From: Nitrospirota bacterium
Lineage (GTDB): Bacteria > Nitrospirota > UBA9217
DNA: 64,000 nt
Assembly (NCBI GenBank): GCA_963754875.1
Contig: CAVWHO010000007.1
Location: forward strand, 32,001 to 96,000
Direction: 5' to 3'
Below are positions 1 through 9,766 of the stretch, piece by piece. The translations under genes and the position numbers were made by a program. Within the stretch, counting starts at the first letter, position 1. The number at the start of each line of letters is the position of its first letter. The notes beneath the pieces are model-generated. The model was not told the DNA's origin. It made no database searches and saw only the letters and a list, made by a program, of their open reading frames with translations.

Positions 1-600
1 GCCGACGAGATCCAGGTGAGCATAGACGGTCTGGAACAGGCCCACGATGCGGTCCGCGGCGCCGGAACATACAAGCGCTCCATGGCCGCGGTCAGGCTGG
101 CGCTCGACGCGGGCTTCGCCGTGTCGATCTCAACCATGGTGCACCGGGCCAATCTCGGCGACTTCGATGACATGGAACAACAGTTTCGCAGCATGGGAAT
201 CAAGGATTGGACCGTGGACGTGCCCTGCGTGGCCGGACGGCTCAGGAAGAATACCGACTTGCTGGTCGGCCCTGAGGAAGGCGGGAGATATCTGGGATAT
301 GGATACGGTGCGGGGTTGCACGCTGCGGCCCGGGGATACGGCTGCGGTTACCATCTCATGTCCGTGATGGCCGACGGCAATATCGCAAAATGCACGTTCT
401 ACCATGATCGATCGGTCGGCACGGTCCGTGACGGGCTGCGGGAAGCCTGGAAGAAGATTCCGCCGGTGAAGCTCAAGAAGCTCTCGTGCAAGTGTGACTA
501 TATCGATGTATGCCGCGGCGGGTGCCGGTACCGTGCGGAACTTCTGAACGGCAAGGGTGGAAAAGATCCTTACCGGTGCACGCTGTATGGTATACTATAA
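1..600 (+). CDS. Radical SAM/SPASM-domain protein, C-terminal part (5' end lies outside the window)
   Basis: SIDG..HDAVRG.GTY radical SAM core motif. C-terminal SPASM cysteine pattern (GCG...KC...CKCDYIDVCRGGC...DPYRC). Reading frame is open to the window edge. Confidence 0.85.
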   Translation, partial: ADEIQVSIDGLEQAHDAVRGAGTYKRSMAAVRLALDAGFAVSISTMVHRANLGDFDDMEQQFRSMGIKDWTVDVPCVAGRLRKNTDLLVGPEEGGRYLGYGYGAGLHAAARGYGCGYHLMSVMADGNIAKCTFYHDRSVGTVRDGLREAWKKIPPVKLKKLSCKCDYIDVCRGGCRYRAELLNGKGGKDPYRCTLYGIL

Positions 601-686
601 ATAATTGCGTTCCGTTTCGTACCCTGTTCTTAAACTCTACGCCGCTCTGCATTGCCCGAATAGTACTTCAGGAAAGGAGGCCCTCA

Positions 687-749
687 ATGACGATCAAAAA
701 AGTGTCAAAGAAACCGGCTTTGACCTGCAAGTGTAAAAGCTCCTGTTAA
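687..749 (+). CDS. 20-aa Lys/Cys-rich peptide MTIKKVSKKPALTCKCKSSC, candidate radical-SAM-modified precursor
   Basis: AAGGAGG RBS at 674-680, ATG at 687, TAA at 747-749. Lies directly after the radical SAM/SPASM gene and before a terminator hairpin. Confidence 0.65.
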   Translation: MTIKKVSKKPALTCKCKSSC

Positions 750-781
750 AATCATCTCGTCGTTCCGCATCAAAAAAATAG

Positions 782-809
782 AAAGCTCGGCACCTCGTGC
801 CGAGCTTTT
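782..809. terminator. Intrinsic terminator, probably bidirectional
   Basis: AAAGCTCGGCAC-CTC-GTGCCGAGCTTT perfect stem followed by Ts, between convergent genes. Confidence 0.8.
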
Positions 810-899
810 CGTTGTTCGGGGAAATGAGTGAAAGGAACGGGCAGTGCCCGGTTGGGAGCTCCGGTCTTGACTTCGGCCGGTGGGTCATAGGAGACATCA

Positions 900-1388
900 T
901 CATCCTCCTTCGACGATTCCCCGTTCCTCCCACATGAACCAGTTGCCCGTATCGGCGAGGAACTGGTAGGTGTTGAAAAAAATTTCGTAATGCTGTTTCT
1001 CTTCCTGGATGAGCCTCTGCAGCAGGGCCTTTTCCCTGTCCGTCTTGGCTTGGGCGAGCGTTCTCTCGTAGAATTCCTTGCCTTCCTTCTCCATCTCCGT
1101 GGCGATCTTGAACGCCTCCATTTCGTCGGTCGTGGCTTCCACTTTTTTCATCATTTCGCCCTTCAGGGCTTCGAAGACCGTTTTAACGTTCTTCATAGGG
1201 CTCACGTCCTGGTGCGTTATGTTCATCCCTTTGATGAGCTGGGAGATCATCTGGAGATGGCGTTTTTCGTCCTCCGTGATCGTCTGGAACATCTTTTTCC
1301 CCGCAGGATACTTCGTTTTGCGCGCCGCCTCGGTATAGAACGATATTGCGTCGGTCTCCATCTTCATTGCCACTTCGAGAGCGTCCAT
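900..1388 (-). CDS. Rubrerythrin/ferritin-like di-iron protein
   Basis: Two E..FY...ExxH repeats (EDEKRH, QEEKQH). RBS GAAGGAGG before the ATG at 1388. Confidence 0.85.
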   Translation of the reverse strand: MDALEVAMKMETDAISFYTEAARKTKYPAGKKMFQTITEDEKRHLQMISQLIKGMNITHQDVSPMKNVKTVFEALKGEMMKKVEATTDEMEAFKIATEMEKEGKEFYERTLAQAKTDREKALLQRLIQEEKQHYEIFFNTYQFLADTGNWFMWEERGIVEGG

Positions 1389-1703: not shown

Positions 1704-2822
1704 TTATTTTTTCGTTTTATCCCCAAACAGGTCCTTCACCGTATTGAAAAAACCTCTCGTCAGCGGAGAAGAATCTTCGGTGTGCAGGCGGTCGAACTCC
1801 TGGAGCAACTCCTTCTGCTTCGGCGTGAGTTTCGATGGCACTTCGACCGAGATCCTGCACAGCTGGTCGCCGATCCCCGATCCGCGGAGATGGGGAAACC
1901 CTTTTCCGCGCAGCCTGAAAACATGGCCCGGCTGGGTACCCGCCGGGATCTTGAGCTTCGTGCCGCCGCTCATCGTCGGTACTTCTATTTCCGTGCCGAG
2001 CGCCGCCTGGGTGAAGCTGATCGGGACGTCACACACGATGTCCTGCCCTTCCCGTTTGAACAGGGCATGGTCCTCGACCGTGAGAAACACATACAAATCT
2101 CCGGGCGGTCCGCCGTAGGAACCCAGTTCTCCCTCGCCGCTCAAGCGAATGGTATTGCCCGTCTCCACTCCTGCAGGGATCTTCACCGAGAGGTTCCGCT
2201 CCCGTTCGACCCGTTTCCTGCCTTTGCAAGTGCTGCAGGGGTCCGTGATGGTCCTGCCTTCCCCGTTGCAGCGGGAACAGGTGCGGCTTATGCTGAAAAA
2301 TCCCTGCTGCGTGCGGACCTGGCCCGCACCGTGGCAGACCGGGCAGGTCACGATGCCGTCCCTCGTCTTGGCCCCGGTTCCGTCGCAATCGGGACAGCGT
2401 TCCCACCGCGGTACGCGGATCTTCGTCGTCGTGCCGAACACCGCGTCTTCAAAACTGATCTTGAGGTTGTACCGAAGGTCCTCGCCTTGCATCGCCCGGG
2501 CGCGGCCCCGGCCGCCCCCGCCCCCGAAAAACTCCTCGAAAATATCACCGAAGATATCTCCCATGCCGGCGCCGCCGAATCCGGCACCGCCCCCGGGCTG
2601 CGCGCCCGGTGCGGTGCCGTACTGGTCGAAATAGGCCCGCTTCTGCGGATCAGAAAGGACCTCGTATGCCTCGTTGATCTCTTTGAACTTCTCTTCAGAT
2701 TCCTTGTTCCCCGGATTTTTATCAGGATGGAATTCGTGAGCGAGCTTCCGGTAAGCGCGCTTGAGCTCGGCTTCGGTTGCATTCCGGTGAACGCCCAGCA
2801 GTTGATAGTAATCTTTGGCCAT
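1704..2822 (-). CDS. dnaJ: Chaperone DnaJ
   Basis: J domain with HPD, G/F-rich linker, four CxxCxGxG repeats. Confidence 0.98.
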
Positions 2823-2946
2823 AGGGGGTTATGTATACCTTTTCTTTTTCAGAGACGCAACGTGCGCAGAGGTGGACAAAAACCTGCTGCATTCCTTGCC
2901 TTTGCGAACCCGGCGTTTTGCGCGGACAGTGGTTTTTTCACAAAAA

Positions 2947-2995
2947 GAGGATAGCGAACGGCGCGGGGAACCTCCCCACCGCTGTCGCTATCCTC
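2947..2995 (-). terminator. Hairpin between dnaK and dnaJ
   Basis: GAGGATAGCGA...TCGCTATCCTC stem with a T-run on the minus strand. Confidence 0.55.
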
Positions 2996-3013
2996 GTCAT
3001 TTCCCGTTAATCG

Positions 3014-4936
3014 TTACTTCTTGTCTTTGTCCACTTCCTCAAACTCGGCGTCCACGACTTTTTCCTCGGGCTTGCCACCGTCGCCCGGGGCCGCTCCCCC
3101 GGCAGCTCGTGTTCCCGCTGCCTGCTCCTTGTTCATCTTGGTGTAGACCTCCTCCGCGAGTTTGTGCGATGCTTTGGAGAGCTCCGCCACGGCCTTTTTG
3201 ATGGCTTCGACGTCCTGGCCGTCCTTCACCCGTCTTGTTTCTTCCAGCGCCCTCTGGATTTCCGCGCGCTCCGCATCGGCAAGCTTGGACCCGTAGTCGG
3301 CGACGGACTTCTCTACCGAGTAGATGAGCGTGTCAGCCTCGTTCCTGGCGTCGGCCGCTTCCCGCTTTTTCTTGTCGTCGGCGGCGTGGGACTCCGCCTC
3401 TTTGACGGCCTTATCGATCTCGTCCTTGCTCATGCCGGACGACGCAGTGATCTTGATGGACTGCTCTCTGCCGGTGCCGAGGTCTTTTGCGGTCACATGC
3501 ACGATGCCGTTTGCGTCGATGTCGAAGGTCACCTCGACCTGCGGGATGCCCCGCGGCGCCGGCGGAATCCCCACCAGCTCGAACCGGCCCAGGGTCTTGT
3601 TGTCCGCGGCCATTTCGCGCTCGCCCTGCACCACGTGGATCGAGACCGCGGTCTGGTTGTCCGACGCAGTAGAAAAGACCTGGCTTTTCTTCGTCGGGAT
3701 GGTGGTATTACGTTCGATGATCTTGGTGGTAACGGCGCCGAGCGTCTCGATGCCGAGGGACAGCGGCGTAACGTCGAGCAGCAGGACGTCCTTGACCTGG
3801 CCGGTCAGGACCGCGCCCTGGATGCCCGCGCCGATGGCCACAACTTCGTCGGGGTTCACGCCGCGGTGCGGGTCTTTCTTGAAGTAGTCCTTCACCGTCT
3901 GGATGACCTTCGGCATACGCGTCATGCCGCCTACGAGGATTGCTTCATTGATCTTGTCAACGGTCTTGCCTGCGTCGTTGAGCGCCTTGCGCACCGGATC
4001 GGTGGTCTTCTCGACGAGATCGCCCACCAGTTGCTCCATTTTTGCACGCGAGAGCTTGTAGAGCAGGTGCTTGGGACCGGTCGCATCAGCCGTGACGAAG
4101 GGGAGGTTGATCTCCGTCTCCGCGACCGACGAAAGTTCGATCTTGGCTTTCTCCGCCGCTTCCTTCAAGCGCTGGAGCGCCATCTTGTCCTTGCTCAGGT
4201 CGATGCCCTGGTCTTTCCTGAACTCATCGGCAAGCCACTTGATGATCCGTTCGTCGAAGTCGTCGCCGCCCAAATAGGTGTCGCCGTTCGTCGACTTCAC
4301 CTCGAACACGCCTTCGCCGAGTTCCAGGATGGAAATATCAAAAGTGCCGCCGCCAAGGTCGTATACGGCAACGGTCTCGTCCTTCTTCTTGTCCAGGCCA
4401 TAGGCCAGGGCCGCGGCCGTCGGCTCGTTGATGATCCTGAGCACATTCAAGCCGGCGATCCTGCCCGCGTCCTTCGTGGCCTGACGCTGGCTGTCGTTGA
4501 AGTATGCAGGCACGGTAATGACCGCATCGCTCACCTTTTCACCCAGAAAATCCTCGGCGGTCTGCCTCATTTTCTGCAGGATCATTGCCGAGATCTCCGA
4601 CGGGCTGTAGGTCTTGCCGCGGACCTCCACGTGGGCGTCGCCGTTCGACGCAGCCACGATCTTGTACGGCAAGTGCTTCATCGCCTCTCTGACCTCGTTC
4701 GAGTCGTATTTTCTGCCCATGAGACGCTTGATCGAGAATATGGTATTTTCGGGGTTCGTGATCGACTGCCGCTTTGCGATCTGGCCGACCAGCCGCTCTC
4801 CGCTTTCGGTGAACGCCACTACCGACGGCGTTGTCCGGCTCCCTTCGGAATTCGGGATGACGACCGGCTCCCCTCCCTCCATGATTGCGACACAGGAGTT
4901 GGTCGTACCGAGATCGATTCCTATAACTTTTGCCAT
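3014..4936 (-). CDS. dnaK: Chaperone DnaK (Hsp70)
   Basis: GIDLGTTNS and DLGGGTFD motifs, C-terminal VVDAEFEEV. Confidence 0.99.
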
Positions 4937-5027
4937 AATGTCCTCCTTGAAGTTGTTCTTTAAGACGAATGTTTCTGTATTCTGAAGCGGAGACGGCTAT
5001 GTTCCCTTCCTGCGCCGCGCTCCGTCA

Positions 5028-5633
5028 TCACTCGTTTACGTGTTCTTCGTTATTTTCTTCCTGGTTCTCGACCGCGGGCTTCTTGGATACGCTGACCCGC
5101 GCATGGCGGAGCACCTTATCGTGGTAGAGATATCCTTCCTGGAACACCTGCACCACCGTGTTCTCCGGGACCGCAGCGGTCTCTTCCTGCATGATAGCGT
5201 CGTGTTTTGCGGGATCGAACGGCTCTCCCTGCGAAGAAAAGGACGTGATCCCGAACTTTTCGAGCACGTCGTGGAGTTGCTTATGCACCAGTTCCACGCC
5301 CTGACGGAGGCCGTCGTTGCTTTCTCCTGCTTCGACCGCATGCTTGATGGCCAACGAGAGATGATCGACGACGCTCAAAAGTTCCCGCGCCATCTGTTCA
5401 TTCGCATACTTCCGGAAATCCGCAAGATCACGCTGCATACGTTTGCGGTAATTGTCGAAGTCCGCGGACGTCCGGAGATACTTGTCATGGGCCTCCGCCG
5501 CTTCTTTGGCCTTCTGCTCCAGCGCCTGCGTCAGTTTTGCAATCTCCGCCGACACCGTCCCGGTATCCTCTTCCTTGACGGAAGGACCCGATGCTCCCTC
5601 TTCTTCCGTGAGATCGTCGAACTCGTCGTTCAT
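5028..5633 (-). CDS. grpE: Nucleotide exchange factor GrpE
   Basis: ADFDNYRKR, FDPAKHDA and GY...KVLRHARV motifs. Position upstream of dnaK. Confidence 0.97.
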   Translation of the reverse strand: MNDEFDDLTEEEGASGPSVKEEDTGTVSAEIAKLTQALEQKAKEAAEAHDKYLRTSADFDNYRKRMQRDLADFRKYANEQMARELLSVVDHLSLAIKHAVEAGESNDGLRQGVELVHKQLHDVLEKFGITSFSSQGEPFDPAKHDAIMQEETAAVPENTVVQVFQEGYLYHDKVLRHARVSVSKKPAVENQEENNEEHVNE

Positions 5634-6686
5634 CGCTCTAAACCCCTCTGTAATCGTTCATTCAGAAGCTTCGAAAGAATCTTTGCCGTATAATCCACAA
5701 CGTGAATCACCTGCTTGTACTGCATCCTCGTAGGTCCGATCACGCCGAGCGTGCCTACGACGTTCGACCCCGCACTTGTAGCTGCCGACCACCATGCTGC
5801 ATCCCTGCATCTCGAAATACGGATTTTCCGATCCGATAAAGACCTTGATGCCCTGCGCCGAAACGCTCCGGTCGAGGAGCTTGAGCAGCTTGTACTTGTC
5901 CTCGAATGCTTTGAACAGTGATCTCATCTTCTCGACATTTGCGAACTCCGGGCTCTCAAGGACCTGCGATGCGCCGCCGATGTACACTTTCTCGCTTTCC
6001 CGCTCCTGCACGTCTTGGCTGGCCCGGTACGTCTCGTCCATCAGCTGCATGAACAGGACCTTCTCTTCCTCCATCTTTTCAACCAGCCGTTTACGGATCT
6101 CGCTCAAGGTCCAGTGTTCGAGTTCCCCGTCGAGGTAGGAGCTGAACATGTTCAAATCCTGCTGCCGGATGCTCTCGTCGAGTTCAATGAGCTTGTTCTG
6201 GACAATGCCGGTTGAGGTCACGAAAATGATAAGGACCTGTCTTCCGCGCAGCCGGACGAACTCGACATGCCGGTACGAAGCTTCCGCCTCGGTCGGCGCC
6301 ACGACGACGCCGGCACAGTGGGACAACACGGCGAGGAACCGGCTTGCCTCCTCCATGAGCTCCTGAAGATCGTCACCGTGGAGTTGAGGGGCCTGCTGGA
6401 GGTGTTCTTCGATGTCATCGCTGTCGTTCTCGATGCTGATCAGGCTGTCGATATAATAGCGATACCCGAGGTCAGTGGGAATTCTGCCTGCCGAGGTGTG
6501 CGGATGGGTCAATAATCCCATATCCTCGAGCTCGGCCATGATGTTCCGGAGCGTGGCGGAACTTACCCCGAAATCGTATCGCTTCACTAGTACCGTGGAG
6601 CCGATCGGAGATCCGCTCGCAATATAGCTGTCGATGACAGCTTGCAAAACCTTTCTATTTCTCTCATCCAGATTCATACTGCTCAC
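5630..6686 (-). CDS. hrcA: Heat-inducible repressor HrcA with an apparent +1 frameshift near 5770-5775
   Basis: SSATLRNIMAELE and HTSAGRIPT motifs. The conserved C-terminus GTLGVIGPTRMQY continues in another frame and ends at a TGA overlapping the grpE ATG. Confidence 0.93.
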
Positions 6687-6719
6687 TACCTTGAGAAAAA
6701 AATCTCGATTCCCACCTTA

Positions 6720-6746
6720 TTAGCACTCGACATAATAGAGTGCTAA
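6720..6746. promoter_or_regulatory. CIRCE operator upstream of hrcA
   Basis: Perfect TTAGCACTC-N9-GAGTGCTAA. Confidence 0.97.
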
Positions 6747-6747
6747 T

Positions 6748-6776
6748 AATTTAACATATGAGCGAATTCGTGTCAA
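6748..6776 (-). promoter_or_regulatory. Sigma70-type promoter of the hrcA-grpE-dnaK-dnaJ operon
   Basis: TTGACA-17 nt-TAAATT on the minus strand, immediately before the CIRCE. Confidence 0.75.
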
Positions 6777-6863
6777 GGTGATATTATTAACGGCTTATGA
6801 TATCGCATTTTTTTAATTTTTCTTTAAAATATCATGGATTCATGGTATTGTTTGGATATCTGA

Positions 6864-6903
6864 TAAAAAAACCATCCCTTCGAAAGCGTTACGGGATGGT
6901 TTT
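6864..6903 (-). terminator. Terminator downstream of hsp20
   Basis: AAAAACCATCCC...GGGATGGTTTTT stem. Confidence 0.7.
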
Positions 6904-6957
6904 CTAATTCACCTTGCAGCGATATCTGGAAGCGGAACTGCACATCCGCCTTCTGTA

Positions 6958-7473
6958 TCAAGCTGCTTTCTTAGCTTCGGTCTCAATCAGCTTTTTCTCT
7001 TCTTTCGGGGCCTCGACCTCGATCTTCCGGGCCTTGGCAATCGTCGGGGCCGGCACGGTGATCTCAAGAATCCCGTTCGAGAATTTCGCCTTCAATTCAT
7101 CGGTCTTCACACCCTCGGGCAGTACAAAGCGCCGCTCGAAGGAACCATAGGTGATCTCCTGATAAACATAATTCTCTTCCTTGGCGCCCTTCTCAGCCTT
7201 CCGTTCGCCCTTGATGATCAGTTCCCGGTCCGTGATGCTGACATCGAGGTCCTTCGGGTCCACACCGGGAAGTTCAGCTCTAAACACGAGCTTGTTGTCT
7301 TTGATATAGCTTTCTACTGAAGGCATCCAAAGCGTAGTCCGTTCACTGGGTGCCTCAGCACCGAGGAACCGGCCAAACAGCCGATCCATGTCATGCTGCA
7401 TTAAGCGAAGCTCTTCGAATGGATCCCACCGTCTCATCATTCTAAAGGGATCCCAACGAGTCAGGCTTTTCAT
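6958..7473 (-). CDS. Hsp20/alpha-crystallin small heat-shock protein
   Basis: RWDPF N-terminus, AELPGV, YGSFERRFVLP, NGILEI motifs. AGGAGG RBS before the ATG at 7473. Confidence 0.95.
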   Translation of the reverse strand: MKSLTRWDPFRMMRRWDPFEELRLMQHDMDRLFGRFLGAEAPSERTTLWMPSVESYIKDNKLVFRAELPGVDPKDLDVSITDRELIIKGERKAEKGAKEENYVYQEITYGSFERRFVLPEGVKTDELKAKFSNGILEITVPAPTIAKARKIEVEAPKEEKKLIETEAKKAA

Positions 7474-7657
7474 AATAATCCCTCCTTTTTTCTTTTTTAC
7501 GATCTCCGGTCCAGGTATCAATCATTCCTGCCATTTTCACCTCTCTTTATGGCTATGGCTGATTGAGCCATCGATACCACGGGAGATCGTTTTCTTAAGC
7601 GTTTCCGATCTCTTATGCGCTTGCCCTCACCTCCCTGCACTATAATCTTCCTTTTTA

Positions 7658-7698
7658 AATATACCACCACATTAGCACTCTGTCAATGAGAGTGCTAA
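7658..7698 (-). promoter_or_regulatory. CIRCE operator (7672-7698) overlapping the -35 of the hsp20 promoter
   Basis: Perfect TTAGCACTC-N9-GAGTGCTAA. Minus-strand TTGACA (7681-7686) lies in the spacer and TATATT follows 17 nt downstream. Confidence 0.93.
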
Positions 7699-7963: not shown

Positions 7964-9766
7964 TTACTGGTAGGTGTAATAAACTGTGGCGAGCTCGCCG
8001 TTGATGCCATACACCTGGAGATAGATTTCCGCCTGCACTGTAGTTTGGCCGCTGCACGTCGACGGGATCGTGACCTGGGCTGTGGTCGCGTTAATACCGA
8101 GCACGACTTGGCTGCCCGAGTCGTCGCATTTTACGGTCGTCGGAGCATTAGGCACTCCGGTATATGCCACGGTCCCAAGCCGTATCATGGAGATGGCGAA
8201 CGTCTTCGGGAGCGTCCAATTCACAGTCTGAGCCGAGCCGACATTAGCGGCCGCAATAGTTGAACCAGTCAGACCGCTTATCATAATAGACTCAGTGGTG
8301 ATCGCGTTGAGCGTCTGTGTATAGGTCACTGTTGGACCGCTTGTTGGCGTTACCCCGATCGTGAACAGCTGGCCCCCTGAAATAGTCGGGTCGAGGGCAT
8401 CGATCCCAAAGGCGTCGAAGTTGAGGGAGCCGTCCCAGGGTGCGACATTCTTTCCATCATAAGACAGCGGGGTCGCACTCCACGGCCCGCCGGAGATAGT
8501 TGCACCGAACAGGCTCGTTACTGTCGACAGAGAACGGGGAGCGTCGACATTAACTTCAAGGACCAGATTGGTGCCTGTCCCAGAGCCCTGGTTCCTGACC
8601 ATGTTCGCACGCACCTCGACATCCGCAATGCGCTTGTCTCCGGACATAAGCCAGTTGCTGCCTACCTTCGTGAAGAAAAACTCATTCGGCGATGTGCTGG
8701 TCTGACCTCCCGCGGTTTGGGAAAGCTTAAATACCGTGTCAGCCGTCGTCGATGTGGATAACGACTTGATGGAGATATCCGAGAAGGCTATGGTCTGCCC
8801 TTTAAAGAGAAAAACGATCTGCTGGGCTACCTGCGCCTGAGTAAGGCCGCCCCAAAGTCCATTGGGGTCCAGGTAGGGCAGCAGGTCGCTTCCAACAAGC
8901 GCTGAACCCCTGGCATTCACAGTAGCGGCAAAGTTGTTGACTGTAGTTGTTATCCCGTCCAGCGCCGTCTGCTGCGCCGTCTGGACCGGTACCACGGTGC
9001 CGTTGGAACTCGTGCTGGTTCCGTTCGTGCCGGTTGTTGCTGTGACGATATTTATCGAGCCGGAAGCGGCGGTCAGCAGGGAGTTTTGCGTAACGCCTCC
9101 GCTGGAGATGATCAGCTGGCCCGTAGACGGGTTAACAATAGTGTGATCGAGTACCTGGTCGATGCCGGTACCGTCAGCAGTAAACGGCGTTGAAATAAGA
9201 TTAAAGCTGCCCGTGGTCACGCCGGCCTGATCCAACCAAAGCTGGACCACGTCCTGGACAACCGAGCTGATCACCGTTACTGCCGTGGGTGAAGGCGGGG
9301 GGTTGGCAGCCGGAGCTGCGAATGCGGCGTCCATGGAAATGCCTTGCACATTATACCATGATCGGATAATGAGGTCCGTCAGAGGAGTGATGTTGATCGT
9401 TGATGCGGCGTTTGCGTCCGCGCTCACGCTGAAGAAGGACTTCGTCGGCGTGGTCACGAGGAGCAGATACGGCCTTGAGAGACCGGTCGTGTCGATCGAA
9501 TACGTCCCGCTGCTCGATGTTGTGGCCGTGAGGCTGCTTCCTGCGCTGTCCTTCAGAGTAACCGTTGCACCTGCAAGCGCTCCGCCGCTCGCTACGGTGC
9601 CGCTCACGTGCACCTGTCCGCTGCCGCTCGATGACGAGCTGCTTGAACTTGAGCTGCTGGAACTGCTGCTACTGCCTCCTCCCCCTCCTCCGCAGCCGGA
9701 AATTATTACCGCCATCGCTAAGAGCACAATTGTGAATACTCCAAACAGCATTCCTGACCTTTTCAT
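7964..9766 (-). CDS. Ser/Thr/Gly-rich surface lipoprotein with carboxypeptidase-regulatory-like domain
   Basis: Lipobox ISGC followed by a poly-Gly/poly-Ser linker. VSGTVA.G..LAGATVTLKD and NITPLT motifs. Confidence 0.75.
   Translation of the reverse strand: MKRSGMLFGVFTIVLLAMAVIISGCGGGGGGSSSSSSSSSSSSSSSSGSGQVHVSGTVASGGALAGATVTLKDSAGSSLTATTSSSGTYSIDTTGLSRPYLLLVTTPTKSFFSVSADANAASTINITPLTDLIIRSWYNVQGISMDAAFAAPAANPPPSPTAVTVISSVVQDVVQLWLDQAGVTTGSFNLISTPFTADGTGIDQVLDHTIVNPSTGQLIISSGGVTQNSLLTAASGSINIVTATTGTNGTSTSSNGTVVPVQTAQQTALDGITTTVNNFAATVNARGSALVGSDLLPYLDPNGLWGGLTQAQVAQQIVFLFKGQTIAFSDISIKSLSTSTTADTVFKLSQTAGGQTSTSPNEFFFTKVGSNWLMSGDKRIADVEVRANMVRNQGSGTGTNLVLEVNVDAPRSLSTVTSLFGATISGGPWSATPLSYDGKNVAPWDGSLNFDAFGIDALDPTISGGQLFTIGVTPTSGPTVTYTQTLNAITTESIMISGLTGSTIAAANVGSAQTVNWTLPKTFAISMIRLGTVAYTGVPNAPTTVKCDDSGSQVVLGINATTAQVTIPSTCSGQTTVQAEIYLQVYGINGELATVYYTYQ

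Follow-up and report, generated by a model that had tools for sequence, protein, structure and literature searches.

The window analysed here, a 64,000-nucleotide stretch of a Nitrospirota genome, opens on the last codons of a radical SAM enzyme, and 86 nt past that gene's stop codon an ATG at 687 begins an open reading frame of only 20 codons with three cysteines among its final seven residues. The arrangement raises the questions of whether so short a frame is a gene, whether its product is the enzyme's substrate and what the enzyme might make of it. An initial annotation of this DNA had located the enzyme stop, an AAGGAGG ribosome-binding site and the 20-codon frame MTIKKVSKKPALTCKCKSSC, all of which are seen in the sequence where it placed them.

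Layout of the locus

The elements of the locus, with coordinates in the window unless prefixed by the contig, are as follows:

G000:C7:31093-31422, - strand: partner gene, 109 aa, seven invariant Cys, lying wholly before the window
C7:31423-31469: 47-bp gap between the enzyme and partner genes, with back-to-back extended -10 sites
G000:C7:31470-32600, + strand: full gene of the enzyme (predicted RRE, radical SAM and SPASM), 376 aa, starting 530 bases before the window
1..600, + strand: 3' end of the enzyme gene (last 199 codons), stop codon at 598-600
588..596, + strand: promoter-like extended -10 sequence TGGTATACT, within the final codons of the enzyme gene, a consensus match
674..680, + strand: Shine-Dalgarno sequence AAGGAGG, 6 nt before the ATG, with similar sites before homologous peptides
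687..749, + strand: 20-aa peptide gene MTIKKVSKKPALTCKCKSSC, TAA stop at 747-749, the core CKCxxSC ending at the stop
782..809, both strands: hairpin with T-runs on both sides, a likely bidirectional terminator common to the convergent rubrerythrin gene
900-1415, - strand: rubrerythrin-family gene, convergent with the peptide gene

The peptide frame had been described as closed by a strong terminator, a claim of which the hairpin stands and the special strength does not. The hairpin (782-808, inner stem 785-793/797-805) is followed on the + strand by only four T, and a terminator scan placed it on the - strand, where the rubrerythrin gene ends; for these reasons we read it as probably a bidirectional terminator shared with that gene rather than one specially strong for the peptide. 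Folding of 603-815 gave a z of -2.15, a signal driven by the terminator, and no riboswitch is claimed.

The peptide gene

Among the 96 ORFs of 12-40 aa in this genome that start with ATG behind AGGAGG, the peptide is the only one with three Cys in its last eight residues and, because it is unique in this set and recurs behind homologous enzymes, we do not regard it as a chance frame. The initial annotation had proposed looking for a conserved micro-ORF beside homologous enzymes, and one was found: the same peptide lies behind 17 of 18 homologues (44-84% identity) and at 0 of 21 distant radical SAM loci, it falls within the flank in 98 of 117 enzyme-first loci (some of them fetched twice), and 92 distinct peptide genes were collected beside homologous enzymes. 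The pattern used to collect these 92 fixed the three Cys, the leader spacing and the ribosome site and left Ser19, Lys15 and the stop position free; Ser19 and a stop directly after Cys20 were nevertheless present in 92/92, and Lys15 in 91/92. The conserved frame is M-x-I-x-K-x8-C-K-C-x-x-S-C, with a basic leader-like part in which Ile3 and Lys5 are conserved, a variable Thr13 (Leu or Met in 23 of the 92) and an Ile3-to-Cys14 distance fixed at 11 residues, with no insertion or deletion in aligned loci.

Over 225 distinct genes, codon entropy in the core (Cys codons being fixed by the pattern) was 0.30, 0.26 and 1.15 bits at positions 1, 2 and 3, so that third positions are about four times more variable than first and second positions, and the stop after Cys20 is TAA in 106, TGA in 72 and TAG in 47. 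This codon pattern lends indirect support to translation of the peptide and, judged from sequence, the 20-codon ORF is a real gene selected at the protein level. Read-through of TGA after Cys20 as selenocysteine was considered and rejected, all three stops occupying the same position in the 225 genes, and no selenocysteine form was seen in 10 genomes when TGA was allowed at the Cys positions. NCBIfam, searched with E up to 10, returned no family for any of eight peptides, none of the named precursors SCIFF, MftA, PqqA, SbtA, geopeptide and CbpA included, although 20-aa queries score low. Among the 80 loci listed of 120 from a metagenome scan with the peptide, two (L195 and L207) look like chance matches and most of the others have the enzyme adjoining. 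One sediment metatranscriptome held four contigs 80-95% alike to the locus, one spanning window positions 642-1033 and the others parts of the enzyme, with none for the partner; these contigs are unstranded, come from another strain and may derive from DNA, and we give them no weight.

Co-inheritance of peptide and enzyme

The enzyme was found in 162 of 401 Nitrospirota genomes and the strict peptide tail pattern in 156, against 0 for a reversed-pattern control, and both were present in 154, the overlap being counted by hand from listings. Variant peptides occur in five of the eight enzyme-only genomes, bringing the peptide to 159 of 162 enzyme-bearing genomes, as against 2 of 239 enzyme-negative genomes (G154 and G361), in both of which a profile search for the enzyme gave none. 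In three genomes (G107, G191 and G200) the enzyme is present and the peptide was not found. When one mismatch to the pattern was allowed, in five genomes, control matches were about as numerous as real ones, and only the exact match in G038 was used. Three large Nitrospirota families are without both genes (f9, 0/76; f17, 0/40; f10, 0/28); in family f16, 14 of 14 genomes carry enzyme and peptide, with the two genes far apart and a separate ribosome site for the peptide, and several other families are alike in this.

The pattern recurs in a second phylum, that of a Desulfobacteraceae assembly, where the enzyme is present in 34 of 301 genomes and the peptide in 33 of those 34 and in 0 of the other 267 (reversed-pattern control, 0); in the single enzyme-bearing genome without the peptide, the enzyme gene lies at the edge of a contig. 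Of 30 second-phylum loci, 19 have the peptide upstream and 9 have it downstream, and peptide, partner and enzyme follow one another on one strand in that order in 19 of the 30. The genomes are kin and these co-occurrence counts are not independent; hitch-hiking is nonetheless hard to defend, because linkage orders differ and the genes stay together when unlinked.

Since the peptide and this one enzyme family travel together through two phyla, the peptide is very likely, on sequence grounds, to be the enzyme's substrate, and the co-occurrence and fixed leader-core layout thus support what the initial annotation had inferred. These two genes and that of the partner described below are mostly single copies, and nearly every genome of several families retains them. 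Enzyme homologues also bear source names from Archaeoglobi, Methanosarcinales, Promethearchaeota and Aenigmarchaeota, and we take the carriers of the system to be anaerobes.

Several exceptions were recorded. Two peptide copies occur in a few genomes (L318, at 5414 and 5580; G529; G615; G020; G029), those of L318 standing in tandem with one core residue changed. G191 and G200 (L106) are near-complete genomes with an enzyme and neither peptide nor partner found, and their enzymes are possibly decaying or repurposed copies. G154, which is 99% complete, has peptide and partner with the enzyme not found. In L018, L161 and L192 the enzyme genes read as frameshifted beside an intact peptide, for which assembly error is possible.

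Expression signals

Of 187 peptide genes, 116 have an extended -10 site at most 260 nt upstream, where shuffles predict 10.5; in linked loci it sits in the enzyme's last codons, and 6 of 6 unlinked f16 peptide genes retain it. Because the site is kept in linked and unlinked genes alike, the peptide is probably transcribed alone, likely, at this locus, from a promoter of its own within the final codons of the enzyme. A similar -10 site ends 6-7 nt before the enzyme ATG in 31 of 41 close loci, a mirror site faces the partner, and no Shine-Dalgarno sequence was found before the enzyme ATG in any of the 41, suggesting leaderless mRNAs for enzyme and partner. Leaderless enzyme and partner mRNAs beside a strongly translated peptide suggest the ratio expected of enzyme and substrate. 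All of these promoter signals are consensus matches.

The enzyme

The enzyme matches the Pfam radical SAM family PF04055 at 81.8 bits (cut-off 29.5), with the CxxxCxxC motif at C95/C99/C102. Its SPASM cysteines (C292, C308, C340, C342, C348, C352 and C370) fit the seven-Cys motif as C292-x10-G-x4-C308, C340-x-C342-x5-C348-x3-C352 and C370, the CxxC of the motif being CxC in the window's enzyme and CxxC or longer in relatives. The seven are invariant in 48/48 aligned enzymes (L018 omitted for its broken frame) and present in 42-44 of 44 distant members. There is no invariant eighth Cys, C253 occurring in 35/48; His284 is found in 47/48 enzymes and 35/44 distant members. The Pfam SPASM model did not match the window's enzyme and exceeded its cut-off in one of 20 relatives, and Pfam PqqD gave no match in 21 enzymes.

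Of 88 NCBIfam families matched, the best 25 all scored far below cut-off, the top being ScmE at 109 bits versus 400, and for seven relatives of the enzyme none came near a cut-off either. ScmE, WgkB, MftC, StsB, SkfB, AlbA, SbtM, GeoRSP and DynA are among the best 25 of 88 whose cut-offs were missed. It was conceivable that the ORF arose by chance, or that the enzyme belongs to Ahb/NirJ heme synthesis or sulfatase maturation and has an unrelated neighbour, and NirJ/Ahb models are indeed among the best NCBIfam matches. Yet AhbC, AhbD and NirJ models gave 75-100 bits versus cut-offs of 500-650, and the genome has a separate AhbD gene (C16:455425-456441, 532.6 bits, over cut-off), with no AhbC over cut-off found in it. 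The anSME model TIGR03942 is not among the best 25 of 88 and gave 57-62 bits versus 349 in two relatives; anSME has an eight-Cys SPASM and is not known to carry an RRE, from which the window's enzyme differs by its seven invariant Cys and an extra N-terminal domain. Together with the fourfold excess of third-position variation in the core, the use of all three stops and the co-occurrence of unlinked genes, these scores make such a coincidence extremely improbable, and they do not place the enzyme with NirJ/Ahb or anSME, which the initial annotation had named as a refutation of its reading.

An RRE domain, for which a search had also been suggested, is predicted in the enzyme itself. The AlphaFold2 model built from 48 sequences (pLDDT 93.9) has SkfB, CteB and SuiB as its top Foldseek matches, and VIA alignment covers residues 2-376 for SuiB (Z 26.8, rmsd 4.2, 353 residues) and 7-356 for SkfB (Z 26.1, rmsd 5.0, 323 residues), while anSME aligns from residue 79 only (Z 24.0). 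Because the alignment ranges of SuiB and SkfB include their RRE domains, on which the N-terminal domain of the model superposes, we take residues 2-78 (approximately 1-78) as a predicted RRE-like domain. An acidic stretch at its edge, D25-E-L-Y-E-L-D31 (D25 in 48/48, E29 in 42 and D31 in 46), would fit a Lys/Arg-rich leader.

In CteB, PapB and Tte1186 three Cys bind cluster I and four bind cluster II, and the substrate binds cluster I (PMC10177961, in part); CrpC has the same 3+4 ligand layout (PMC13692751, in part). The seven-Cys motif is general to SPASM enzymes, non-thioether ones included (PMC6231123), and thioether chemistry is thus allowed by it, not proven.

The cysteine-rich partner

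Upstream of the enzyme and divergent from it, the partner gene encodes a protein built of two Cys-motif repeats, in which seven Cys are invariant. A search of 201 genomes located it in 81, namely 78 of 85 with the enzyme and 3 of 116 without; at least one of the seven misses (G073, locus L094) has a one-repeat form of low score, also seen in L017 and L019. The gene frequently stands apart from the enzyme, as in families f11 and f16, where it lies behind cutA. It lies directly before the enzyme in 29 of 30 second-phylum loci, with an in-frame fusion in 5, and 5 partner-enzyme fusions were counted among 150 listed representatives; all nine longer partner homologues are fused to this enzyme family, one of them partial. 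The fusions identify the partner as belonging functionally to the enzyme system; being only 30-46% identical between groups, they are either old or arose more than once. In G184 only a weak partner-like match was seen, near cutA.

The partner family has no counterpart in Pfam or NCBIfam, and weak matches to Pfam cathelicidin (5 of 32 partner sequences, best E 0.0036) were discarded. Its model (pLDDT 81) gave no Foldseek match at E 0.001 and a best VIA Z of 3.8, poor fold matches that do not show a new fold, and in the ESM Atlas it met only 'hypothetical protein' clusters of Nitrospirota and Thermodesulfobacteriota, with recognition below the mark. The fused partner is an accessory domain without match in Pfam, NCBIfam or solved structures. 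Prediction of an enzyme-partner complex scored 0.00 in two runs, the partner fold being uncertain, and speaks neither for nor against an interaction.

With its seven conserved Cys and its tracking of the enzyme, the partner could itself be the true substrate, or another protein could be, as CrpA is for CrpC, leaving the peptide as an unmodified metal-binding or regulatory mini-protein; RRE-SPASM enzymes with protein substrates exist (PMC13692751, in part), and the peptide, often encoded far from the enzyme, has a promoter-like site to itself. We consider this quite unlikely: the fusions to the enzyme seen in several lineages are what one would expect of a subunit more than of a substrate needed in excess, the strong Shine-Dalgarno sequence here belongs to the peptide and not the partner, and the leader-core layout with its fixed spacing fits a substrate recognised by an RRE.

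Proposed chemistry

In the reading we prefer, with a probability of about 0.5, the enzyme would bind the basic leader through its predicted RRE and cross-link the CKCxxSC core by Cys thioethers, giving an intracellular product; thioether cross-linking of the core, taken as a claim of its own, stands at even odds. That the product would stay in the cell is suggested because the system is retained in single copy and no protease or exporter was recognised among recurring neighbours. The Ile3-x-Lys5-Val6 segment of the leader would add a strand to the acidic RRE edge, the fixed Ile3-Cys14 distance would serve as a ruler placing the core in the active site, and a core Cys would bind the open iron of a three-Cys auxiliary cluster I (C292, C308, C352), unless His284 or Cys253 fills that open site. 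The SAM radical would then abstract H from an acceptor, most plausibly the invariant Lys15 or Ser19, and Cys sulfur would be joined to a carbon of one of these or of another core residue, each C-S bond lowering the mass by 2 Da. The partner may be a metal- or Fe-S-binding accessory domain that holds the other thiols, passes electrons or receives the product and, in what is the weakest step, the product may serve metal or sulfur handling rather than being an exported antibiotic. More broadly, we suggest tentatively that the system could be a three-gene pathway of anaerobic bacteria, and probably archaea, in which the radical SAM enzyme, aided by a new Cys-rich accessory domain, would make from the 20-residue peptide a cofactor for use within the cell, metal-binding or redox-active, by chemistry new to RiPPs, as a counterpart of mycofactocin or PQQ in strict anaerobes.

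Other radical chemistry would leave the Cys as metal ligands. SuiB, which gives the best structural match over the whole length, forms Lys-Trp C-C cross-links, and the near invariance of Lys15 and Ser19 would also suit a Lys C-C or C-N cross-link, an epimerisation or a Ser19 ether. The core has no aromatic acceptor, and its three conserved Cys, together with a cluster site that looks open, favour sulfur chemistry, which makes these modifications improbable. Against leader binding by the RRE in our preferred reading, the SuiB leader does not bind that enzyme's RRE (PMC6231123, in part).

The position of Cys20 invites a different reading, in which it undergoes C-terminal oxidative decarboxylation or cyclisation, as with MftC, and trimming releases a small redox cofactor. 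The search did not demand the stop that directly follows Cys20 throughout, the decarboxylase BlsE is the second sequence match among solved structures, and single copy, vertical inheritance and the apparent lack of an exporter resemble cofactor pathways such as those of PQQ and mycofactocin. Matches to the MftC model (87 bits) and BlsE (66 bits) cover the SAM core only, no peptidase or tailoring gene recurs, and the conservation of Cys14 and Cys16 would be left unaccounted for, and we regard this route as unlikely.

Genomic neighbourhood

A check for a protease or transporter upstream of the window had been proposed, and none was recognised among recurring neighbours in the clustered loci (flanks of 1.5-6 kb); a part of the neighbour clusters was compared with protein families, and genes farther away could do the job. 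Lineage-bound recurrent neighbours include rubrerythrins, 2-oxoacid:ferredoxin oxidoreductase and a TPR protein, and in 40 of the clustered loci a rubrerythrin homologue is found close to the system.

A His-tailed cupin-like protein spans phyla: it follows the enzyme in 15 of the 30 loci of the second phylum and stands beside the partner in 3 other loci. Of 201 genomes 42 have it, and 41 of these also have the enzyme; it was not found in the window's genome or genus. An obligatory fourth part of the system it cannot be, not being found in the window's genome. The family (L274:2643-2984, L072:4599-4946 and 16 other loci) has invariant HACY and GHEE motifs, and some of its loci have cbiO-like ABC ATPase genes close by.

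Certain lineages have recurrent metal genes: an SO_0444 Cu/Zn efflux permease over cut-off with an ArsR regulator in one (L280), a copper P-type ATPase beside the peptide in three loci (L127, L154, L163) and CutA before the partner in families f11 and f16. At the window's own locus the only metal-handling neighbour is the rubrerythrin, and metal or sulfur handling as the context of the system is a weak hint. Cysteine desulfurase, in some loci with NifU or TusA, was seen near the enzyme in L129 and L203, and also in L089, L092, L093, L097 and L261. Sister peptides in copper-export operons were looked for by a short-ORF scan of 40 loci, which found no sister type.

The metal genes, with the His-tailed cupin, speak for a reading in which the enzyme oxidises the core Cys as SbtM does, giving thiooxazoles with a free thiol and hence a copper chelator; all three peptide Cys are conserved while most surrounding residues vary, and SbtM, a three-cluster radical SAM/SPASM enzyme, acts in this way on a peptide Cys (PMC9204691, in part). 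Against it, the enzyme scores 64 bits with the SbtM model (cut-off 350), SbtM acts on Gly-Cys and here Thr/Leu, Lys and Ser precede the Cys, and copper genes are a minority of neighbours, with no recurrence next to 20 unlinked cupin genes (by clustering only). We hold this outcome to be unlikely.

Relation to known systems

The closest parallels to the thioether reading are the ranthipeptide and sactipeptide systems (CteB/Tte1186 with SCIFF, PapB, SkfB, AlbA), which likewise combine RRE, radical SAM and SPASM domains, seven Cys in a 3+4 arrangement and a short Cys-rich peptide of leader and core; SCIFF, too, is conserved in anaerobes. Identity to their maturases is only 18-22%, with the listed NCBIfam cut-offs missed, and the present system differs in its 20-aa peptide with a 7-residue core ending in Cys, in the extra, fusable Cys-rich partner and in that no exporter or protease was recognised among recurring neighbours. 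Unlike PapA and SCIFF, the core has neither Cys-x3-Asp/Glu nor Cys-x4-Thr acceptor patterns.

Other likenesses are partial. SbtM/SbtA (TIGR04082) is a radical SAM/SPASM system acting on a short-peptide Cys in anaerobes, from which the present one is set apart by its score and by the lack of Gly-Cys. Mycofactocin (MftA/B/C) and PQQ (PqqA/D/E) share the single-copy peptide, the strict core, the apparent absence of an exporter and a possible cofactor role, but no sequence likeness of their peptides to ours was found (0 NCBIfam families for 8/8 short queries), the RRE is here fused and no tailoring genes recur. With streptide-type SuiB/StrB the RRE holds the same position, yet identity is 15% and our peptide has no Lys-Trp motif. 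CrpC/CrpA of Methanococcus voltae (TIGR04463; PMC13692751, in part) is an RRE-radical SAM-SPASM enzyme with the same 3+4 ligands and an adjoining Cys-rich protein; CrpA is a large repeat protein with C-x-x-Q/D motifs, whereas here the Cys-rich protein is without such repeats and a mini-peptide is added, and TIGR04463 is absent from the best 25 of 88 families for the window's enzyme.

As far as sequence comparison can tell, the system would work like a ranthipeptide or sactipeptide maturase system and is outside every named family tested. No description of it was found in the full-text literature, listings and abstract starts searched, though supplements of radical-SAM RiPP atlases could list the precursor unnamed, and a term search of PMC12710340 gave no mention of these taxa. 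Retention in nearly all genomes of several families, even where the genes are scattered, speaks for an everyday function in the cell rather than for an antibiotic made sporadically. Genome mining by neighbourhood would overlook unlinked copies of the system, and the peptide itself escapes gene callers. The system is also tractable: its peptide is a synthesizable 20-mer, its enzyme and partner are 376 and 109 aa long, and nature offers fusions of these two in a single chain.

Other features in and near the window

Farther into the window, 1704-7521 on the - strand holds an ordinary heat-shock cluster (hsp20, hrcA, grpE, dnaK, dnaJ) with two exact CIRCE elements, at 6720-6746 before hrcA and at 7672-7698 before hsp20, identified against the CIRCE consensus. 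Next to it, a lipoprotein-like ORF of 600 aa (7964-9766, - strand) has a Gly/Ser linker after its lipobox and no Pfam match at E 1e-6. Upstream of the window on the same contig, a 1411-aa protein (G000:C7:22723-26958, - strand) presumably resembles a fused acyl-CoA dehydratase activase of the BadF/BadG/BcrA/BcrD type, and there also lies a gene for a 518-aa radical SAM protein (G000:C7:12219-13775, - strand).
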